DNA of 6,675 bases from a virus (taxonomy: Duplodnaviria; Heunggongvirae; Uroviricota; Caudoviricetes): positions 1-6,675 of the IMG/VR virus record IMGVR_UViG_2648501392_000001, one strand, 5' to 3'. Below the pieces are notes generated by a model. The model did no database searches. It saw only the letters and a program-made list of their open reading frames with translations, and had not been told where the DNA came from. Positions 631 through 6,675 of this stretch are shown here, in pieces (within the stretch, counting starts at the first letter, position 1; every line of letters begins with the position of its first letter). A program made the translations under genes and the position numbers.

Positions 631-763
631 TTTTGGGAACTCCTGGCTGATTAAGTACGTCGATGAGTCGTTTCCATCCGTCACGTAATTTACGTGTGAT
701 TCGCTCAAGTAAAGATTCGGAAGGGCAGCCAGCAACAGGCCACCCTGCAATGGCATATTGCAT
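623..763 (-). CDS. cIII: cIII, inhibitor of FtsH-mediated CII degradation; 46 aa here, apparently C-terminally truncated relative to lambda cIII
   Basis: ATG at 763..761 gives [46 protein letters not shown] followed by TAA at 625..623. This matches lambda cIII residues 1-46 from memory. SD GGAG (complement of 771-774) is 7 nt upstream. Confidence 0.75.
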   Translation of the reverse strand: MQYAIAGWPVAGCPSESLLERITRKLRDGWKRLIDVLNQPGVPKNG

Positions 764-834
764 GGTGTGCTCCTTATTTATACATAACGAAAACGCCTCG
801 AGTGAAGCGTTATTGGTATGCGGTAACGCCGCGC

Positions 835-1203: not shown

Positions 1204-1353
1204 CTATTCATATCCTCACAGATAAAAAATCGCTCTCACATTGGAGGGCAAAGAAGATTTCCAATAATCAGAACAAGTCGGCTCCTGTTTAGTTACGAGC
1301 GACATTGCTCCGTGTATTCACTCGTTGGAATGAATACACAGTGCTTATTCGTA

Positions 1354-1824
1354 CTAATAAAATACCCAATTTTCTGTTTCTTGGTTGTGTCCAAAGTTAT
1401 ATTCAATATCTGGTGTTGATGTATCAATATTCTTCATCCCATCAACAAGAGTTGATACAACAGCCAAATCTTGTTTTATTCTCATTAAATGGTATTTCTT
1501 CCGGCGCAATAAACTTTCAATAGCAAGTTTCTTCGTTGGGAATGCAAAAGATCTTTCTGCATTTTTTGCTACTTTCTTAATTGCATATCTATTTCTCCTT
1601 TGTTTCCATTCCTGTAACCACTGATTTGGTGCTGGTTTAAAATTAACAATCCAATGCGCAGGAACCAACCATGCATAATGCTCTGTCTGATGAAAAGCTA
1701 TATATTGAAGTGCGAATATTTTTATCCCATCTTCTTCAACTGTCGCCTGGAATCTCCAGAAAACAGGCATTCCATCATGTTCAGTTTCTAATTCAGGAAA
1801 AGGTACGCTCCATGATTTTGTCAT
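1354..1824 (-). CDS. Hypothetical protein, 156 aa, in the position where lambda carries ral and sieB; non-lambda cargo gene
   Basis: ATG at 1824..1822 is preceded by SD GAGGTGA. It is co-oriented with the pL operon between N and ea10. It has a basic central stretch (WKQRRNRYAIKKVAKNAERSFAFPTKKLAIESLLRRKKYHLMRIKQ) and no obvious transmembrane segment. I do not recognise the family. Confidence 0.6.
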   Translation of the reverse strand: MTKSWSVPFPELETEHDGMPVFWRFQATVEEDGIKIFALQYIAFHQTEHYAWLVPAHWIVNFKPAPNQWLQEWKQRRNRYAIKKVAKNAERSFAFPTKKLAIESLLRRKKYHLMRIKQDLAVVSTLVDGMKNIDTSTPDIEYNFGHNQETENWVFY

Positions 1825-1882
1825 ATCTCACCTCAAATAAGTGGTTTGCTGCCTAATTTCATTTTCTGGCGACCAACACAAG

Positions 1883-2266
1883 TCACCTCGCCGTCAGTTG
1901 TTTGGATTTCCGGTAGCCTGCCGCGTAAATGGCTACGTTTGGAAGACATACACCAGTTTCTGGTTGCTTATGTCCAAACTCATTCGCGTACACAATGGCC
2001 GCTCGCTCCAGATTGCGTCTGTATTCTTTCTGTTGCCAGATCACGTCTTGTGCCATGAACTTAATTGGCTTAGCGTCTTCTATACGCTCAGGCGTTTCGT
2101 GAGTACCTTTAGCCTGAATCTGCGCTCTGCTTAGAGTAGGGCGGTGTAATACTTCTGAACTTATTGCTTCTTCGCGGGCCAGTACGCCATTAGCTAATGC
2201 CTTTACCTTTAAACGCTCACGACGACGAGAACGTGAATTGCCTTTGAACTGAGTTCTGCGTGTCAT
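1883..2266 (-). CDS. N: N-type transcription antitermination protein, 127 aa, P22 gp24-like
   Basis: It is the first gene downstream of pL/nutL. ATG 2266..2264 has a strong SD (AGGAGG, 5-nt spacer). The N-terminal arginine-rich motif GNSRSRRRERLKVKALA resembles the P22 N motif GNAKTRRHERRRKLAIER, and the C-terminus VAIYAAGYRKSKQLTAR resembles P22 gp24 VALYAAGHRKSKQITAR (both from memory). Confidence 0.85.
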   Translation of the reverse strand: MTRRTQFKGNSRSRRRERLKVKALANGVLAREEAISSEVLHRPTLSRAQIQAKGTHETPERIEDAKPIKFMAQDVIWQQKEYRRNLERAAIVYANEFGHKQPETGVCLPNVAIYAAGYRKSKQLTAR

Positions 2267-2279
2267 ATAGACCTCCTGA

Positions 2280-2420
2280 TGAACTTTGGTGGTGTGGTAG
2301 GTGGGAGACCCATTTCGACCTGTTTCGGCCTACTTCAATTCGGCAATAGTCCCGCAGGCTTCGCCGCTTTACGTGCGACATATTCCCGTCCATGAACCCT
2401 TCACCACACCCCAAAGTTCA
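2280..2420 (-). promoter_or_regulatory. Long-range inverted repeat in the N leader, a candidate RNase III-type processing or translation-control stem
   Basis: 2280-2298 (TGAACTTTGGTGGTGTGGT) is the reverse complement of 2403-2420 (ACCACACCCCAAAGTTCA) apart from one bulged base. The 3' arm ends directly next to the N SD at 2271-2276. Confidence 0.5.
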
Positions 2421-2431
2421 CTTTGGTTATT

Positions 2432-2446
2432 GCGCTTTGTCAGCGC
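2432..2446 (-). promoter_or_regulatory. nutL boxB hairpin (P22-type, GACAA loop)
   Basis: Minus-strand RNA reads GCGCUGACAAAGCGC: a 5-bp stem with GACAA pentaloop, matching the P22 boxB I recall. It lies between pL and N. CTACG sits immediately 5' of it, as at nutR. Confidence 0.75.
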
Positions 2447-2506
2447 CGTAGATTCATATTCGAATCGTTGTATATTCACCGCCCTGGTGAGTAGTGCGTC
2501 CTGCTG

Positions 2507-2600
2507 ATGGCTTAAAGATAACCTAGGTTATAGTGGTGGTCAATAACTTAATTTATGGATTCTGATAAATAAGTTATATGTGATGGATAATAAAGGTATT
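2507..2600 (-). promoter_or_regulatory. OL operators and pL promoter (leftward)
   Basis: Operator-like palindromes at 2518-2531 (ATAACCTAGGTTAT, perfect), 2543-2556 (ATAACTTAATTTAT), 2566-2578 (ATAAATAAGTTAT) and 2587-2600 (ATAATAAAGGTATT), the same family as the sites between cI and cro. Candidate pL on the minus strand: -35 TTGACC (complement of 2538-2543), 17-nt spacer, -10 TATCTT (complement of about 2515-2520). Confidence 0.6.
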
Positions 2601-2717
2601 TTATTTTTGTAAATGTTGCGGATTGGTCGGTATTGGAAGGGGGGCGCTGTATTGCTGTCGTGTTGGTTCGTGGTTTACCGCATTTGCGGCTGTTAAATAT
2701 GGGGGACGATCGCGAGG

Positions 2718-2746
2718 CAAAGAAAACCCGGCGCGGAAGCCGGGTT
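2718..2746 (-). terminator. Rho-independent terminator (minus strand) downstream of the 44-aa ORF
   Basis: Minus-strand RNA AACCCGGC-UUCCGC-GCCGGGUU followed by UUCUUUG: an 8-bp GC-rich stem with a U-rich tail, 16 nt after the ORF stop. Confidence 0.65.
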
Positions 2747-2762
2747 TGAGATTTAGTTATTT

Positions 2763-2897
2763 TCAGCAGCTCGGATAAGAGCGGAAGTGCTGACGAACAT
2801 GTTCGAGCTCACCGAAACGTATGCGGCAGTAACTGCGCACATAAACCGGCTTGTCGTGTTCGTAGATGAAGTCATCGCGATTAACATCGTGAGCCAT
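2763..2897 (-). CDS. Small hypothetical protein, 44 aa (MAHDVNRDDFIYEHDKPVYVRSYCRIRFGELEHVRQHFRSYPSC)
   Basis: ATG at 2897..2895 is preceded by SD AGGAGA with a 7-nt spacer; stop TGA at 2765..2763 is followed by an intrinsic terminator. This frame is not in the supplied ORF track (too short). It contains several His and Cys residues. Confidence 0.55.
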   Translation of the reverse strand: MAHDVNRDDFIYEHDKPVYVRSYCRIRFGELEHVRQHFRSYPSC

Positions 2898-3045
2898 AGC
2901 TTTTCTCCTGTTTTTGTATACAGCCTGTTTACCCGAACAGGTTGTAGTTTGTTGGGAGAACCGCTATCCTTGGCTTGCGGTTGCCAAGGGTGTAGCGGTA
3001 GGTAATCCTCCATACACTTCGGAAATACTGGATATATTTCCGACC

Positions 3046-3080
3046 CAAAAAGCCCCGTTCCCTCGGGGCTTTATTCTTTT
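3046..3080. terminator. Bidirectional rho-independent terminator, the tIMM-equivalent ending the cI operon
   Basis: GCCCCG(3052-3057)-TTCCCT-CGGGGC(3064-3069). On the minus strand it is followed by UUUUU (complement of A-run 3047-3051), immediately after the 177-aa ORF stop at 3071-3073. On the plus strand it is followed by TTTATTCTTTT (3070-3080). Confidence 0.75.
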
Positions 3081-3604
3081 GTTCCGCCATCAATCATCGC
3101 AAAAGATTCCACAATCAGACTGATACGCTTGGCTTCATCTTTTGTCAGGTCGCGAGGCAGGTTGCCAATGGTGACGATAAGATCTCCGCGCAATGGAATC
3201 GGCAGTTCAAATGTTTTTACACCAACCTGTACGTCAGCTACCGCCTTCTTCTTAGGTGCCATCTTTTTACGCTCCTTTTTTTTATTTACATCACCAACTG
3301 ACACATTAATCTCACCATTCTGGTAGGAGATAAATTTATCAATAGCACTTTGCATTCGGCTTTTGTATGCCTGCAAAGATGATTCAGAAGGTTTGCTTTC
3401 TGCTGAGTCTGCGTACGAACTTGCTAAGTTGGCAACGCTATAATCACGGATATCGGCATCGGTGAAATCCGACCCAAGAACAGTAAGAAGGCGCAGGGAA
3501 GAGTCACGGAGATTGCGGGCTGTAGCATCATTGACGATACCAAGCTCAGGAAGCATCTGTAAGAAGTCCTGAAATGCTTTGATGGTGTAGCTTTTGGTTT
3601 GCAT
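3071..3604 (-). CDS. Hypothetical protein, 177 aa, distal gene of the cI-linked cassette (rexB-equivalent position); two-domain layout with a lysine-rich linker
   Basis: ATG 3604..3602 with SD GAGG and a 7-nt spacer; the stop abuts the terminator. The protein has a central KKKERKKMAPKKK linker separating an N-terminal domain of about 105 aa from a C-terminal domain of about 55 aa. No obvious transmembrane segment. Family not recognised. Confidence 0.7.
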   Translation of the reverse strand: MQTKSYTIKAFQDFLQMLPELGIVNDATARNLRDSSLRLLTVLGSDFTDADIRDYSVANLASSYADSAESKPSESSLQAYKSRMQSAIDKFISYQNGEINVSVGDVNKKKERKKMAPKKKAVADVQVGVKTFELPIPLRGDLIVTIGNLPRDLTKDEAKRISLIVESFAMIDGGTKE

Positions 3605-3793
3605 AAAAAAGCCTCATACAGTTGATGAGGCAATACTAATTTGATCGTCAAAACAAATCAAGACCCAAGAAACGATCGTTGATTCCTTTCTTTGTGACAA
3701 TACAGTCAAATCAAGTTTTACAAGGATTACTTTTCTTCGATTACATTAAAGGCCGCACTTCTGCGACCATCCATCACCAAAATGTCTCTTCAC

Positions 3794-4135
3794 TCATCCG
3801 AAGAAGCAGCAATCCGGGTCAGCACGCACAAGCTCAAGCGCATCAGTCAGCGAAAGTTCAGTACTGTACTGATGCCATTTCATATCCTTCCGCATCCAAT
3901 AGATTTTCCATCTATCCAGAGAACGTATGTACTTGATTCTTGCTGATGGCAGGATGTTTGTTTCACCTGGGTTGCCCTGCCACACGGGGCGCTGTTCGCC
4001 GATATCTATCGTTTGGTCATTGATGCTATAAACAATATCCAGTTCATTGCGGATATGTTCAGGCGGCCTTATGCTTTCAATGAATTGGTGAACTTCTTTT
4101 TTGACCGCTTGATATTCAAGGTCAGTGAACGCCAT
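3794..4135 (-). CDS. Hypothetical protein, 113 aa, proximal gene of the cI-linked cassette (rexA-equivalent position)
   Basis: ATG 4135..4133 with strong SD GAGGAGG and a 4-nt spacer, only 37 nt downstream of the cI stop on the same strand, so it is probably co-transcribed from pRM. Family not recognised. Confidence 0.7.
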   Translation of the reverse strand: MAFTDLEYQAVKKEVHQFIESIRPPEHIRNELDIVYSINDQTIDIGEQRPVWQGNPGETNILPSARIKYIRSLDRWKIYWMRKDMKWHQYSTELSLTDALELVRADPDCCFFG

Positions 4136-4172
4136 CTATCCTCCTCACCCAAACGTTTCTTCAGGCCACTGG

Positions 4173-4880
4173 TTACCAGCTATGCGATGACCAGAATACT
4201 CTGCCAATAATCCTTACGGTTTTATGAAATTCATCTCTATCCATTACTTCATCCGGGTACTCTTCGCGATTTATTGATCTGATTATCACCGATGTAGGAG
4301 TGGCGATTAATGTTTTTACTCGCAACAAATCAGACTGGCAAATAGCGTAGGTTTTACCATCTCTGATGGTGGTATCTTGTGTGTTAACACCAACAACATC
4401 GCCATCGTGAAGAGTTGGTTCCATGCTTTGACCTGTTACCCTTACCAGCTTGGCAGAACTTTCAGTTACCCCCATCTTTTTCAGATAGTACTTTCTGAAA
4501 ACCAAAGAGAACTCTGATGATTCTTCTATCTCGCAGCTACCGCTTCCAGCCGAAAGCGAAACGTTAAGAAGAGGCAATGCGACAAACTCGTCATCGTTTT
4601 TTTTAATGTCTTCCCATACCACAGCTTTTAAAGATGACTCACGGATATTGGATGGTTCTTCATGTGTACCATCCCTCATTTCACCAATACCAGAACTAAG
4701 CCATTCAGGGCGTACTTTTAAAGCATTAGCTAACTCAACCATCTTGCGAGATCCGTTTGTTTTACCGGATGACATCTTCTGTATGGCTGGCTGAGATATT
4801 CCAACCATGTCCGCAAGCTGTGATTGCGACACCCCTGCCGATCTCATGGCTGCATTTAGTCTTTCTGCGAATGTTTTCAT
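4173..4880 (-). CDS. cI: CI-type prophage repressor, 235 aa: N-terminal HTH plus C-terminal S24 (LexA-like) autopeptidase domain
   Basis: Translation contains an HTH region (QSQLADMVGISQPAIQKM), an Ala-Gly cleavage site (SLSAGSG), the serine motif GQSMEP and a downstream Lys (LLRVK). It is divergent from cro across an operator-rich region. I chose ATG at 4880 with no SD (leaderless, as for lambda pRM transcripts) over the in-frame TTG at 4910. Confidence 0.9.
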   Translation of the reverse strand: MKTFAERLNAAMRSAGVSQSQLADMVGISQPAIQKMSSGKTNGSRKMVELANALKVRPEWLSSGIGEMRDGTHEEPSNIRESSLKAVVWEDIKKNDDEFVALPLLNVSLSAGSGSCEIEESSEFSLVFRKYYLKKMGVTESSAKLVRVTGQSMEPTLHDGDVVGVNTQDTTIRDGKTYAICQSDLLRVKTLIATPTSVIIRSINREEYPDEVMDRDEFHKTVRIIGRVFWSSHSW

Positions 4881-4991
4881 ATCCACAAATCTATAACTAC
4901 GGTTATCCAAAGTAAAATAATAAAGGTTATTGCTATCTTTTATAACTTGGGTTATCCTTGGTTATAAGTAATGGCTGAAAGAGGTATGCTC
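4881..4991. promoter_or_regulatory. OR operators with divergent pRM (leftward) and pR (rightward) promoters
   Basis: Three 14-bp palindromes of the ATAAC-N4-GTTAT family at 4893-4906 (ATAACTACGGTTAT), 4916-4929 (ATAATAAAGGTTAT) and 4942-4955 (ATAACTTGGGTTAT), spaced 23 and 26 bp, plus an extra GGTTAT half-site at 4960-4965. Candidate pRM on the minus strand: -10 TAGATT (4888-4893), start at the cI AUG, -35 TTTACT (4911-4916). Candidate pR -10 TATAAG at 4964-4969; the pR -35 is ambiguous. Confidence 0.65.
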
Positions 4992-5216
4992 ATGAATTTA
5001 GTAATTCACCGAGCCTTGAAGATTGTCGGTAGTCAAAAGCGGCTTGCCGACAAGTGTGGTGTAACGCAGCCAGCAGTACACAAATGGCTGAAAGGCGGGC
5101 AGGTTTCTCCAGAGAAAGTTACCGCCATCGTTAACGCCACTGGAGGGCAGATCAAGGCTTACGAAATTCGCCCAGATTTACCACACCTGTTTCCAAAACC
5201 GAATCAGGCAGCATAA
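4992..5216 (+). CDS. cro: Cro-type HTH repressor, 74 aa
   Basis: It is divergent from cI and first on the rightward operon. ATG 4992 is preceded by SD AAGAGG with a 7-nt spacer. HTH-like segment QKRLADKCGVTQPAVHKWLKG. The sequence is unlike lambda Cro, so this is a different immunity type. Confidence 0.8.
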   Translation: MNLVIHRALKIVGSQKRLADKCGVTQPAVHKWLKGGQVSPEKVTAIVNATGGQIKAYEIRPDLPHLFPKPNQAA

Positions 5217-5254
5217 GTAACACCGCTATTTTCACAATGGACATTCGTCCTACG

Positions 5255-5269
5255 TCGCTGACAAAGCGA
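5255..5269 (+). promoter_or_regulatory. nutR boxB hairpin (P22-type, GACAA loop)
   Basis: TCGCTGACAAAGCGA between cro and cII, with the same loop and CTACG 5' flank as nutL. A candidate boxA-like CGCTATTTT lies at 5224-5232 but is weak and uncertain. Confidence 0.7.
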
Positions 5270-5342
5270 GCCCCAAGATATCTGACCAACTAAGGCCATA
5301 TGTGTTTCCACGCATACCTTTCAACTAACTATTCACTATTGG

Positions 5343-5377
5343 AAATATTAAGAAATGACACAAACAAGTTACAGCAA
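5343..5377 (-). promoter_or_regulatory. pRE-like CII-activated promoter (leftward), overlapping the cII start
   Basis: Minus strand reads TTGCTGTAACTTGT (complement of 5364-5377; a TTGC-N6-TTGT CII box), then 12 nt, then TTAATAT, then TTCC. This has the same architecture as lambda pRE (TTGC-N6-TTGC, 12 nt, TAAGTAT, TTCC) from memory. Confidence 0.55.
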
Positions 5378-5651
5378 ACTATCCCAGCGCGACGTTGATC
5401 GCGCAGAAACGGATTTACTCATCAACCTGTCAACGCTTACCCAGCGCGGTCTGGCAAAGATGATTGGCTGTCATGAATCGAAGATAAGCAGAACGGACTG
5501 GAGATTTATTGCTTCGGTCCTGTGTGCTTTCGGAATGGCATCAGACATCAGTCCGATTAGCAGGGCTTTTAAGTATGCGCTTGATGGAATCACCAATAAA
5601 AAACGCCCGGCGGCAACCGAGCGTTCTGAACAAATCCAGATGGAATTCTGA
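5355..5651 (+). CDS. cII: CII-type transcriptional activator, 98 aa, chimeric: non-lambda N-terminal region with the lambda C-terminal 19 aa
   Basis: The C-terminus TNKKRPAATERSEQIQMEF is identical to the lambda cII C-terminus from memory; the first 79 or so residues differ. Position between nutR and O matches. Confidence 0.85.
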   Translation: MTQTSYSKLSQRDVDRAETDLLINLSTLTQRGLAKMIGCHESKISRTDWRFIASVLCAFGMASDISPISRAFKYALDGITNKKRPAATERSEQIQMEF

Positions 5652-5673
5652 GGGAATTACTGGATCAATCCAC
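5597..5673 (-). ncRNA. oop: oop antisense RNA (about 77 nt), with its tO terminator at 5597-5623
   Basis: The minus strand across 5597-5680 reads ...GACTCCTGTGGATTGATCCAGTAATTCCCTCAGAATTCCATCTGGATTTGTTCAGAACGCTCGGTTGCCGCCGGGCGTTTTTTATTGGTGA, near-identical to the lambda tO/oop region I recall (hairpin GCCGCCGGGCG plus U6). It is antisense to the 3' end of cII. Exact ends are estimated by analogy with lambda. Confidence 0.7.
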
Positions 5674-5682
5674 AGGAGTCAT

Positions 5683-5711
5683 TATGACAAATACAGCAAA
5701 AATACTCAACT
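5683..5711 (-). promoter_or_regulatory. pO promoter driving oop
   Basis: Minus strand: -35 TTGAGT (complement of 5706-5711), 17-nt spacer, -10 CATAAT (complement of 5683-5688), placing the start near 5675. Confidence 0.55.
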
Positions 5712-6622
5712 TCGGCAGAGGTAACTTTGCCGAACAGGAGCGTAATGTGGCAGATCTCGATGATGGTTACGCCAGACTATCAAATATGCTGATTGAGGCT
5801 TATTCAGGCGCAGATCTGACCAAGCGACAGTTTAAAGTGCTGCTTGCCATTCTGCGTAAAACCTATGGGTGGAATAAACCAATGGACAGAATCACCGATT
5901 CTCAACTTAGCGAGATTACAAAGTTACCTGTCAAACGGTGCAATGAAGCCAAGTTAGAACTCGTCAGAATGAATATTATCAAGCAGCAAGGCGGCATGTT
6001 TGGACCAAATAAAAACATCTCAGAATGGTGCATCCCTCAAAACGAGGGAAGTTCCCCTAAAATGAGGGACATCCCTCAAAACGAGGGAAAATCCCCTAAA
6101 ACGAGGGATAAAACATCCCTCAAATTAGGGGATTGCTATCCCTCAAAACAGGGGGACACAAAAGACACTATTACAAAAGAAAAAAGAAAAGATTATTCGT
6201 CCGAGAATTCTGGCGAATCCTCTGACCAGCCAGAAAACGATCTTTCTGTGGTTAAACCGGATGCTGCAATTCAGAGCGGCAGCAAGTGGGGAACAGCAGA
6301 AGACCTGACCGCCGCAGAGTGGATGTTTGACATGGTGAAGACCATCGCACCATCAGCCAGAAAACCGAATTTTGCAGGGTGGGCTAACGATATCCGCCTG
6401 ATGCGTGAACGTGACGGACGTAACCACCGCGACATGTGCGTGCTGTTCCGCTGGGCATGCCAGGACAACTTCTGGTCCGGTAACGTGCTAAGTCCGGCCA
6501 AACTCCGCGACAAGTGGACCCAACTCGAAATCAACCGTAACAAGCAACAGGCTGGCGTGACAGCTGGAAAACCAAAACTCGACCTGACAAACACTGACTG
6601 GATTTACGGGGTGGATTTATGA
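5684..6622 (+). CDS. O: Replication initiator O, 312 aa, with the origin iterons inside its coding sequence
   Basis: ORF-track protein MTNTAKILNFGRGNFAEQERNVADLDDGYARLSNM...TDWIYGVDL is near-identical to lambda O from memory. SD AGGAG is 5 nt upstream of ATG 5684. The stop overlaps the P start (ATGA). Confidence 0.95.
   Translation: MTNTAKILNFGRGNFAEQERNVADLDDGYARLSNMLIEAYSGADLTKRQFKVLLAILRKTYGWNKPMDRITDSQLSEITKLPVKRCNEAKLELVRMNIIKQQGGMFGPNKNISEWCIPQNEGSSPKMRDIPQNEGKSPKTRDKTSLKLGDCYPSKQGDTKDTITKEKRKDYSSENSGESSDQPENDLSVVKPDAAIQSGSKWGTAEDLTAAEWMFDMVKTIAPSARKPNFAGWANDIRLMRERDGRNHRDMCVLFRWACQDNFWSGNVLSPAKLRDKWTQLEINRNKQQAGVTAGKPKLDLTNTDWIYGVDL
6032..6200. repeat. Replication origin: six O-binding iterons (6032-6156) followed by an A-rich tract (6157-6200)
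   Basis: Iterons TCCCTCAAAACGAGGGA-like at 6032-6049, 6052-6069, 6071-6088, 6091-6108, 6115-6132 and 6138-6156, each an internal inverted repeat, spaced 19-24 bp. Then cacaaaagacactattacaaaagaaaaaagaaaagattattcg. Confidence 0.85.
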
Positions 6623-6675
6623 AAAACATCGCCGCACAGATGGTTAACTTTGACCGTGAGCAGATGCGTCGGATC
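6619..6675 (+). CDS. P: Replication protein P (DnaB helicase loader), N-terminal part only; the gene runs off the right edge
   Basis: Translation MKNIAAQMVNFDREQMRRI matches the lambda P N-terminus from memory; start overlaps the O stop. Confidence 0.9.
   Translation, partial: MKNIAAQMVNFDREQMRRI

Follow-up and report, generated by a model that had tools for sequence, protein, structure and literature searches.

Where in this locus does DNA of the lambda type begin, where does it end, and how is a cII gene to be understood whose last residues are those of lambda? The stretch analyzed here (6,675 bp, hereafter the window) corresponds to the early region of a lambdoid (pro)phage that resembles 933W. 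The gene content given below follows from the ORF list and Pfam searches, with the addition of a boxB-like hairpin:

Minus strand, leftmost in the gene order: gam/kil/cIII/ea10-like genes.
1883-2266, minus strand: N homologue.
4173-4910, minus strand: cI repressor; the longest cI reading frame starts with TTG at 4910.
4971-5216: cro.
About 5255-5269, plus strand: boxB-like hairpin UCGCUGACAAAGCGA between cro and cII, corresponding to the nutR annotated in 933W.
5355-5651, plus strand: cII, 98 amino acids plus stop codon.
5684-6622, plus strand: O replication initiator of the 933W type with six iterons (Pfam Phage_rep_O, E 1e-35).
After O, at the right end of the window: start of P.

With its position in the rightward early operon, between cro/nutR and O, cII shows the gene order that characterizes its family. 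The nearest complete relatives are the 933W-group Shiga-toxin phages and a prophage of E. coli O39:NM F8704-2. The latter genome is the best match among complete E. coli genomes (87% of the window covered, 99.3% identity), and its complete prophage corresponds to window 1832-6675 at 99.6%. The immunity region (2496-5230; cI, cro and upstream ORFs) is not of the 933W type and matches Stx1_JNE110649 (94.5%) and the F8704-2 prophage (99.6%). Further to the left, blastn revealed a sharply bounded block (300-1344, the kil/cIII/ea10 region) that is 98.2% identical to lambda and had gone unmentioned in the original prediction; the left arm is therefore mosaic with lambda as well. At the start of the cIII-like gene, Rfam detects the cIII translational thermoregulator Lambda_thermo over the full model (718-776, minus strand, 88.5 bits). 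Two minus-strand ORFs, 1354-1824 (156 aa) and 3071-3604 (177 aa), gave no significant Pfam family; a CagZ match of the 177-aa ORF was weak and below the cut-off.

Central to the question raised above are a short island and the two points at which it is bounded:

5588-5594: left junction; lambda homology runs from 5590, and 5594 is the first site at which lambda-type and 933W-type islands can be told apart.
5590-5644 (55 bp): lambda-identical island; on the plus strand the CII tail codons 79-97, on the minus strand tO and the 3' half of oop stem-loop I.
5643-5645: right junction; lambda-type at site 5643, 933W-type from 5645.

Global alignment to lambda (J02459) sets the start of lambda homology at window position 5590, i. 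e. lambda 38592, and blastn agrees. In an ungapped comparison anchored at this base, agreement with lambda rises from chance level over 5530-5589 (14/60) to 55/55 over 5590-5644 and 61/62 over 5590-5651. Such an abrupt change of identity, the mark of a lambdoid module boundary, is seen at 5590 against lambda and at 5645 against 933W. Gradual divergence from lambda across cII is ruled out by the step from 14/60 to 55/55. The sharp junction that had been predicted at 5588-5595, within cII and next to the tO hairpin, is thereby confirmed, and pairwise alignment to lambda fixes it at nucleotide level. Since 5590 is the second base of cII codon 79, residues T80-F98 (19 amino acids, TNKKRPAATERSEQIQMEF) are identical to lambda CII 79-97, just as had been proposed for the last 19 residues. 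The junction lies 8 nt past the U-run of the oop terminator; with the oop end mapped at about 5597, it therefore falls at the physical end of the oop gene. No lambda similarity was found by blastn through cro, cI and N, and the statement that the cII body, cro, cI and N are non-lambda stands as long as one exception is admitted, a 45-bp patch at 2702-2746 within a stretch (1345-5589) that otherwise shows no lambda DNA similarity. The left junction is not peculiar to the present genome, being a population-wide boundary that is already in the literature (PMC3349717, PMC2629481).

What, then, is the part of cII to the left of this boundary?

5355-5589, plus strand: cII body, phage-21/933W-type allele; codons 1-78, helix-turn-helix included.

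As DNA, this segment shows no similarity to lambda, neither in the global alignment to J02459 nor by blastn, and in this sense it had rightly been called non-lambda. It is, however, a member of the CII family. Residues 1-92 of the 98-aa protein align with positions 1-91 of the 91-position Pfam profile Phage_CII (PF05269; E 4.9e-34, 116.9 bits against a cut-off of 21.3), a full-length match, and the structure of lambda CII (PDB 1xwr) is matched with an E value of 9e-10. Outside the common 19-residue tail, only 19 remaining aligned positions are identical between the window CII and lambda CII. The body is identical to 933W at 219 of 235 bp, and in multiple alignment it is near-identical to lambda imm21, PhiR63_2 and Stx1_JNE110649. 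To judge from these sequence comparisons, the body represents the classical phage-21/933W allele and, though diverged, is homologous to CII and not foreign to the family. The six-way alignment additionally reveals that the body itself is finely mosaic among relatives. By its lambda-identical residues 80-98, the protein also carries the sequence of the FtsH degradation signal, which in lambda CII occupies the last 16 residues (Kobiler et al. 2002, cited in PMC5869508).

To the right of 5590, the situation differs from what had been anticipated. The original prediction held that everything to the right of the junction is lambda-like, which is true coarsely, as the right arm is 94% identical to lambda to the window end (blastn). 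This similarity lends some credit to a simpler history, in which one crossover near 5590 brought N, cI, cro and the cII body, all non-lambda, together with true lambda DNA for everything to the right (cII tail, oop, pO, O, P); an architecture of this kind does exist, for example, in PhiR63_2 and lambda imm21. Yet, sites at which lambda and 933W differ tell otherwise. The island is identical to lambda at 55/55 positions and to 933W at 38/55. The six-way alignment shows 17 positions within 5594-5643 at which the window departs from 933W and JNE110649, with both flanks almost identical, and at all 17 informative sites of the island the window carries the lambda base. Beyond the island up to 6030, none of eight informative sites is lambda-type and all eight are 933W-type (5645, 5654-55, 5667, 5671, 5733, 5792, 5806 and all later informative ones among the 933W-type sites; Fisher p 9e-7 for the switch). 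Out to 6675, 26 sites and a 39-bp indel are all of the 933W type where lambda and 933W differ, and 5645-6675 is identical to 933W at 1030/1031 positions. The 39-bp insertion relative to lambda (6031-6069) adds two iterons to give six, as annotated in the 933W record. It contains a private base, A at 6050, and a spurious Rfam match to SNORA74 (6027-6153) falls on the iterons.

The switch at 5643/5645 therefore makes the lambda-identical stretch a 55-bp island with two junctions, the second of which had been overlooked. With every distinguishing site from 5645 being 933W-type, the six-iteron insertion included, and only 55 bp being lambda-type, one crossover does not suffice and a second junction is needed, which renders the simpler history improbable. 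At the sequence level, the right arm is the 933W version of a lambda-type replication module.

The island carries information on both strands:

5597-5673, minus strand: oop antisense RNA of about 77 nt, placed by alignment to lambda 38675-38599.
5598-5627, minus strand: tO intrinsic terminator, with a G+C-rich hairpin (5604-5627) followed by a U-run (5603-5598), from a terminator scan.
5681-5709, minus strand: pO promoter-like site TTGAGT-17-CATAAT, overlapping the O start, from a promoter scan; identical to lambda.

The sequence elements of an oop/tO unit are present, i. e. a predicted leftward pO over the O start, a terminator within the 3' end of cII, and an RNA of about 77 nt with two hairpins (predicted fold -29.8 kcal/mol, z -4.8). 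The mapped overlap of oop with the cII 3' end matches the 52 nt by which lambda oop overlaps cII (PMC5869508). The RNA is a chimera whose 5' part is of the 933W type and whose 3' part is of the lambda type. Based on what is known from lambda, this chimeric oop would still fold, terminate at tO and be able to pair with the 3' end of cII mRNA. The Rfam search of the window returned no match in the oop region, only the cIII thermoregulator and the spurious SNORA74; as lambda's own oop is identical over 5597-5644, this suggests that Rfam holds no oop family.

The U-run of tO is encoded by the Lys-Lys codons of CII (Lys/Asn-Lys-Lys across the tail alleles), and its G+C stem is supplied by Pro/Ala/Gly-rich codons. 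In six tail alleles, including those from Serratia and Yersinia, the antisense hairpin and U-run are kept at the same place, with 96.7% of cells paired and compensatory changes in 4/10 pairs; slid controls were 36-58% paired and had no compensatory changes. All tested tails of cII loci from Enterobacter, E. coli, Serratia and Yersinia (loci L206 and L208-L213) likewise have an antisense G+C hairpin with U-run and compensatory stem changes, and the hairpin is kept even where the downstream replication genes differ. A further terminator-like hairpin with a weak T-run lies on the plus strand at 5495-5520, i. e. on the sense strand within the cII coding sequence. As a real terminator it was rejected, as it is probably a chance occurrence (2 sites found, 0.9 expected).

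Because the CII tail is dual-coded with the oop terminator, tails vary as blocks, which explains the position of the boundary and fits the behavior of the tail as a separate evolutionary unit. Could dual coding also account for the pattern without any recombination, by fast divergence of the body next to a tail and oop segment under double constraint as protein and antisense terminator? The conserved hairpin with its compensatory changes and the homology of the two body proteins would agree with such a scenario. It does not explain, however, how 14/60 turns into 55/55 within one codon, synonymous sites included, why the island of 933W and JNE110649 is 31% diverged although their flanking DNA agrees with the window at 93-100%, or why one and the same island occurs with three body alleles and several replication modules, an incongruence between neighboring segments. 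Given the step, the diverged island in close relatives and the reassorted modules, constraint alone cannot give this pattern, and divergence without recombination is very unlikely.

The reassortment just mentioned emerges from a scan of IMG/VR for the exact lambda-type island, which recovered at least 120 loci. These are mostly E. coli prophage fragments and not independent samples, so that the frequencies are rough: about two thirds have lambda-type bodies, about one third 21/933W-type bodies, and a few have others. Among the matches listed, several right flanks and replication modules follow the island; of 116 loci with this island, 79 lose homology to the window precisely at 5590, and on the right-hand side 27 lose it at 5691 and four at 5644-5647. 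Hence, the boundary is reused with differing flanks, namely three body alleles and several replication modules. A classing of loci into 'O-lambda-like' and 'other-rep' by an exact 38-mer proved too strict and was left out of the replication-type counts. The 933W-type island (77 loci) was found only with the 21/933W body and is followed by a 933W-type right flank in 69 of 70 complete loci. The combination in the window may accordingly derive by recombination from a coherent 933W haplotype and be in the minority, or it possibly represents an older form of that haplotype. At the protein level, the conserved 21/933W-type body occurs with at least five tail types. One locus, L019, illustrates reshuffling elsewhere in the region: it is 94% identical to the cI-cro region of the window (4135-5231), continues with a lambda-type cII body, shares window 5590-5695, and has another replication module after 5695. 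This arrangement implies a further junction near 5231, between cro and nutR.

The record might conceivably be an assembly chimera, i. e. two co-resident lambdoid prophages collapsed at their common oop-pO repeat. E. coli genomes often contain several lambdoid prophages (up to six matching places per genome), and a common segment of about 100 bp could mislead short-read assemblers. Four complete E. coli chromosomes, however, are 100% identical to the window over 5540-5700 (161 bp, covering both junctions), and in each of 97 complete-genome E. coli records the junction region differs by one mismatch at most. The same arrangement occurs in the IMG/VR loci L065 and L089, and the F8704-2 prophage, which matches across the entire cII-O region, is itself complete. 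In addition, the exact 98-aa CII is found on 227 public contigs and is widespread in E. coli and Salmonella records. With an identical arrangement in complete genomes and on 227 contigs, an assembly artefact can therefore be excluded for practical purposes and is the least probable of the alternatives weighed here.

The start of cII overlaps the candidate promoter that CII would activate:

5377-5364, minus strand: CII box of pRE, TTGC TGTAAC TTGT, around the -35 position and within the first cII codons.
5350-5345, minus strand: candidate pRE -10 element TAATAT, 13 nt downstream of the proximal tetramer and at the same position as lambda AAGTAT; putative function.

The two tetramers lie at cII ATG+19 and ATG+9, in the exact register of lambda (TTGC GTTTGT TTGC, 13 nt, AAGTAT), and the proximal repeat differs by one base, TTGT vs TTGC. 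Such an arrangement, with direct repeats on either side of -35 and an antisense orientation across the start of cII, is what is expected of a CII target promoter. The lambda architecture is thus retained, in agreement with the prediction; merely its spacer of 12 nt has to be corrected to 13 nt, as in lambda. The motif TTGC-N6-TTGY occurs once in the window with 0.79 matches expected, a count that is not significant, so that its weight derives from position and register. In 109 loci with a 21/933W-type body, TTGC never varies at the distal position; 86 of them have TTGT and 23 have TTGC as the proximal tetramer. A single-base change in the repeat is also described for phi24B (PMC4651098). With box and register conserved, recognition of a TTGC-type box by the window CII is a well-supported prediction. 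By analogy to lambda, the body would bind the TTGC-N6-TTGT box and activate pRE, while the lambda-type tail would supply the FtsH degradation signal and direct proteolysis.

Taken together, cII-oop-O most likely (with a probability of roughly 85%) consists of three exchangeable pieces that meet around an oop-pO linker. The first would be the phage-21/933W-type cII body (5355-5589) with pRE and nutR upstream of it; the second the lambda-type island (5590-5644), which encodes the CII tail and, on the opposite strand, the oop terminator and part of oop; and the third the 933W-type pO-O-P replication module from 5645. Position 5590 would then be an old, population-wide boundary, at which lambda, 21/933W and P22-like body alleles all meet a conserved oop segment. 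The oop-pO stretch of about 100 bp (5590-5691) may act as a homologous linker, a crossover substrate that reshuffles immunity-side against replication-side modules, presumably when co-resident lambdoid phages undergo homologous or short-homology recombination. A rarer boundary is the right one at 5643/5645, within oop. Its origin could be a short patch of conversion, or else a PhiR63_2-like phage, with a 21-type body and a lambda-type island, may have crossed over with a 933W-like phage. Alternatively, the 933W-type island could be derived, with the window representing the older state.

This three-part composition is real but ordinary. In light of the published features of lambda imm21, epsilon34 and phi24B, a mosaic cII restates the already known and recurrent mosaicism of lambdoid phages, and the second junction with its 55-bp island is a refinement and not a new kind of feature. 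The junction, a textbook case of lambdoid modular exchange, thus carries little weight beyond correct annotation: cII should be treated as a 21/933W-type activator with a lambda-type degradation tail, and the right arm should be called 933W-type and not lambda-type. A more far-reaching suggestion, which is doubtful, is that the oop/CII-tail island exchanges independently as a specificity cassette that determines the antisense pairing of oop RNA and cII mRNA together with the degradation tail of CII. If so, swaps between lambda, 933W, 21 and other allele types would alter interference in the lysogeny decision and in oop-dependent replication inhibition between co-resident or superinfecting lambdoid phages, and allele diversity as well as short-patch exchange would be selected instead of being by-products of neutral mosaicism. 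The lysogeny frequency of Shiga-toxin phages could also be adjusted through tail/oop alleles, should these differ in their effect on CII stability or on antisense cross-talk.

In comparison with known systems, lambda (J02459 38360-39585) shares with the window the gene order cII - oop/tO - pO - O, the identical segment 5590-5644 (and hence the tO hairpin, the CII tail T80-F98 and oop in its 3' part), an identical pO, the geometry and register of pRE, and an O that is 98% identical up to the iterons. Unlike the window, lambda has a cII body without DNA similarity and with few common residues outside the tail, a proximal tetramer TTGC instead of TTGT, and four instead of six iterons; the 5' part of the window oop and the pO-proximal sites are 933W-type, in contrast to lambda. 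Phage 21, or lambda imm21 (OM418627; PMC3349717), has the cII body allele of the window, and lambda homology resumes at the same position by oop. It differs in its own tO loop variant, a tail ending in ...KKKRPVCKTERSEQIQMEF with a 3-bp insertion, a canonical TTGC-N6-TTGC box, and a lambda-type right arm with four iterons. According to PMC3349717, lambda imm21, in which the cII-oop overlap is altered, largely escapes oop-dependent inhibition. In the same source, the conserved oop-pO segment is aligned for 23 lambdoid phages, 933W among them, and a 33-bp conserved sequence is credited to Clark et al. 2001, the boundary 'sequence 5' of lambdoid mosaicism.

933W and related Stx phages (NC_000924 13227-14494) resemble the window in the cII body (93%), in pO-O-P (1030/1031, six iterons) and in the TTGC-N6-TTGT box, which matches the single-base change noted for phi24B (PMC4651098). 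They have their own island allele (38/55) with a CCCCGG/CCGGGG hairpin and the tail ITKKKSPVAAGDSKQIDMQF. For epsilon34, PMC2629481 describes a CII with a weakly similar N-terminal part and a C-terminal part in which 16/18 residues are identical to lambda, as well as TTGCN6TTGC/T sites at pRE. The Salmonella P22-like phages g341c and epsilon34 contain the same lambda-type island as the window from about 5595 on. What sets them apart is the body allele, a third one, and the replication module, which follows directly on the cII stop codon and is not that of the window. Juhala et al. (2000) reportedly described conserved 'linker' sequences at the module boundaries of lambdoid mosaics. Like these linkers, the window has a short conserved oop-pO segment between interchangeable modules, with breakpoints clustering at its ends, 5590 and about 5691. 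To this it adds a breakpoint inside the linker segment, at 5643/5645, and is otherwise the same in kind.
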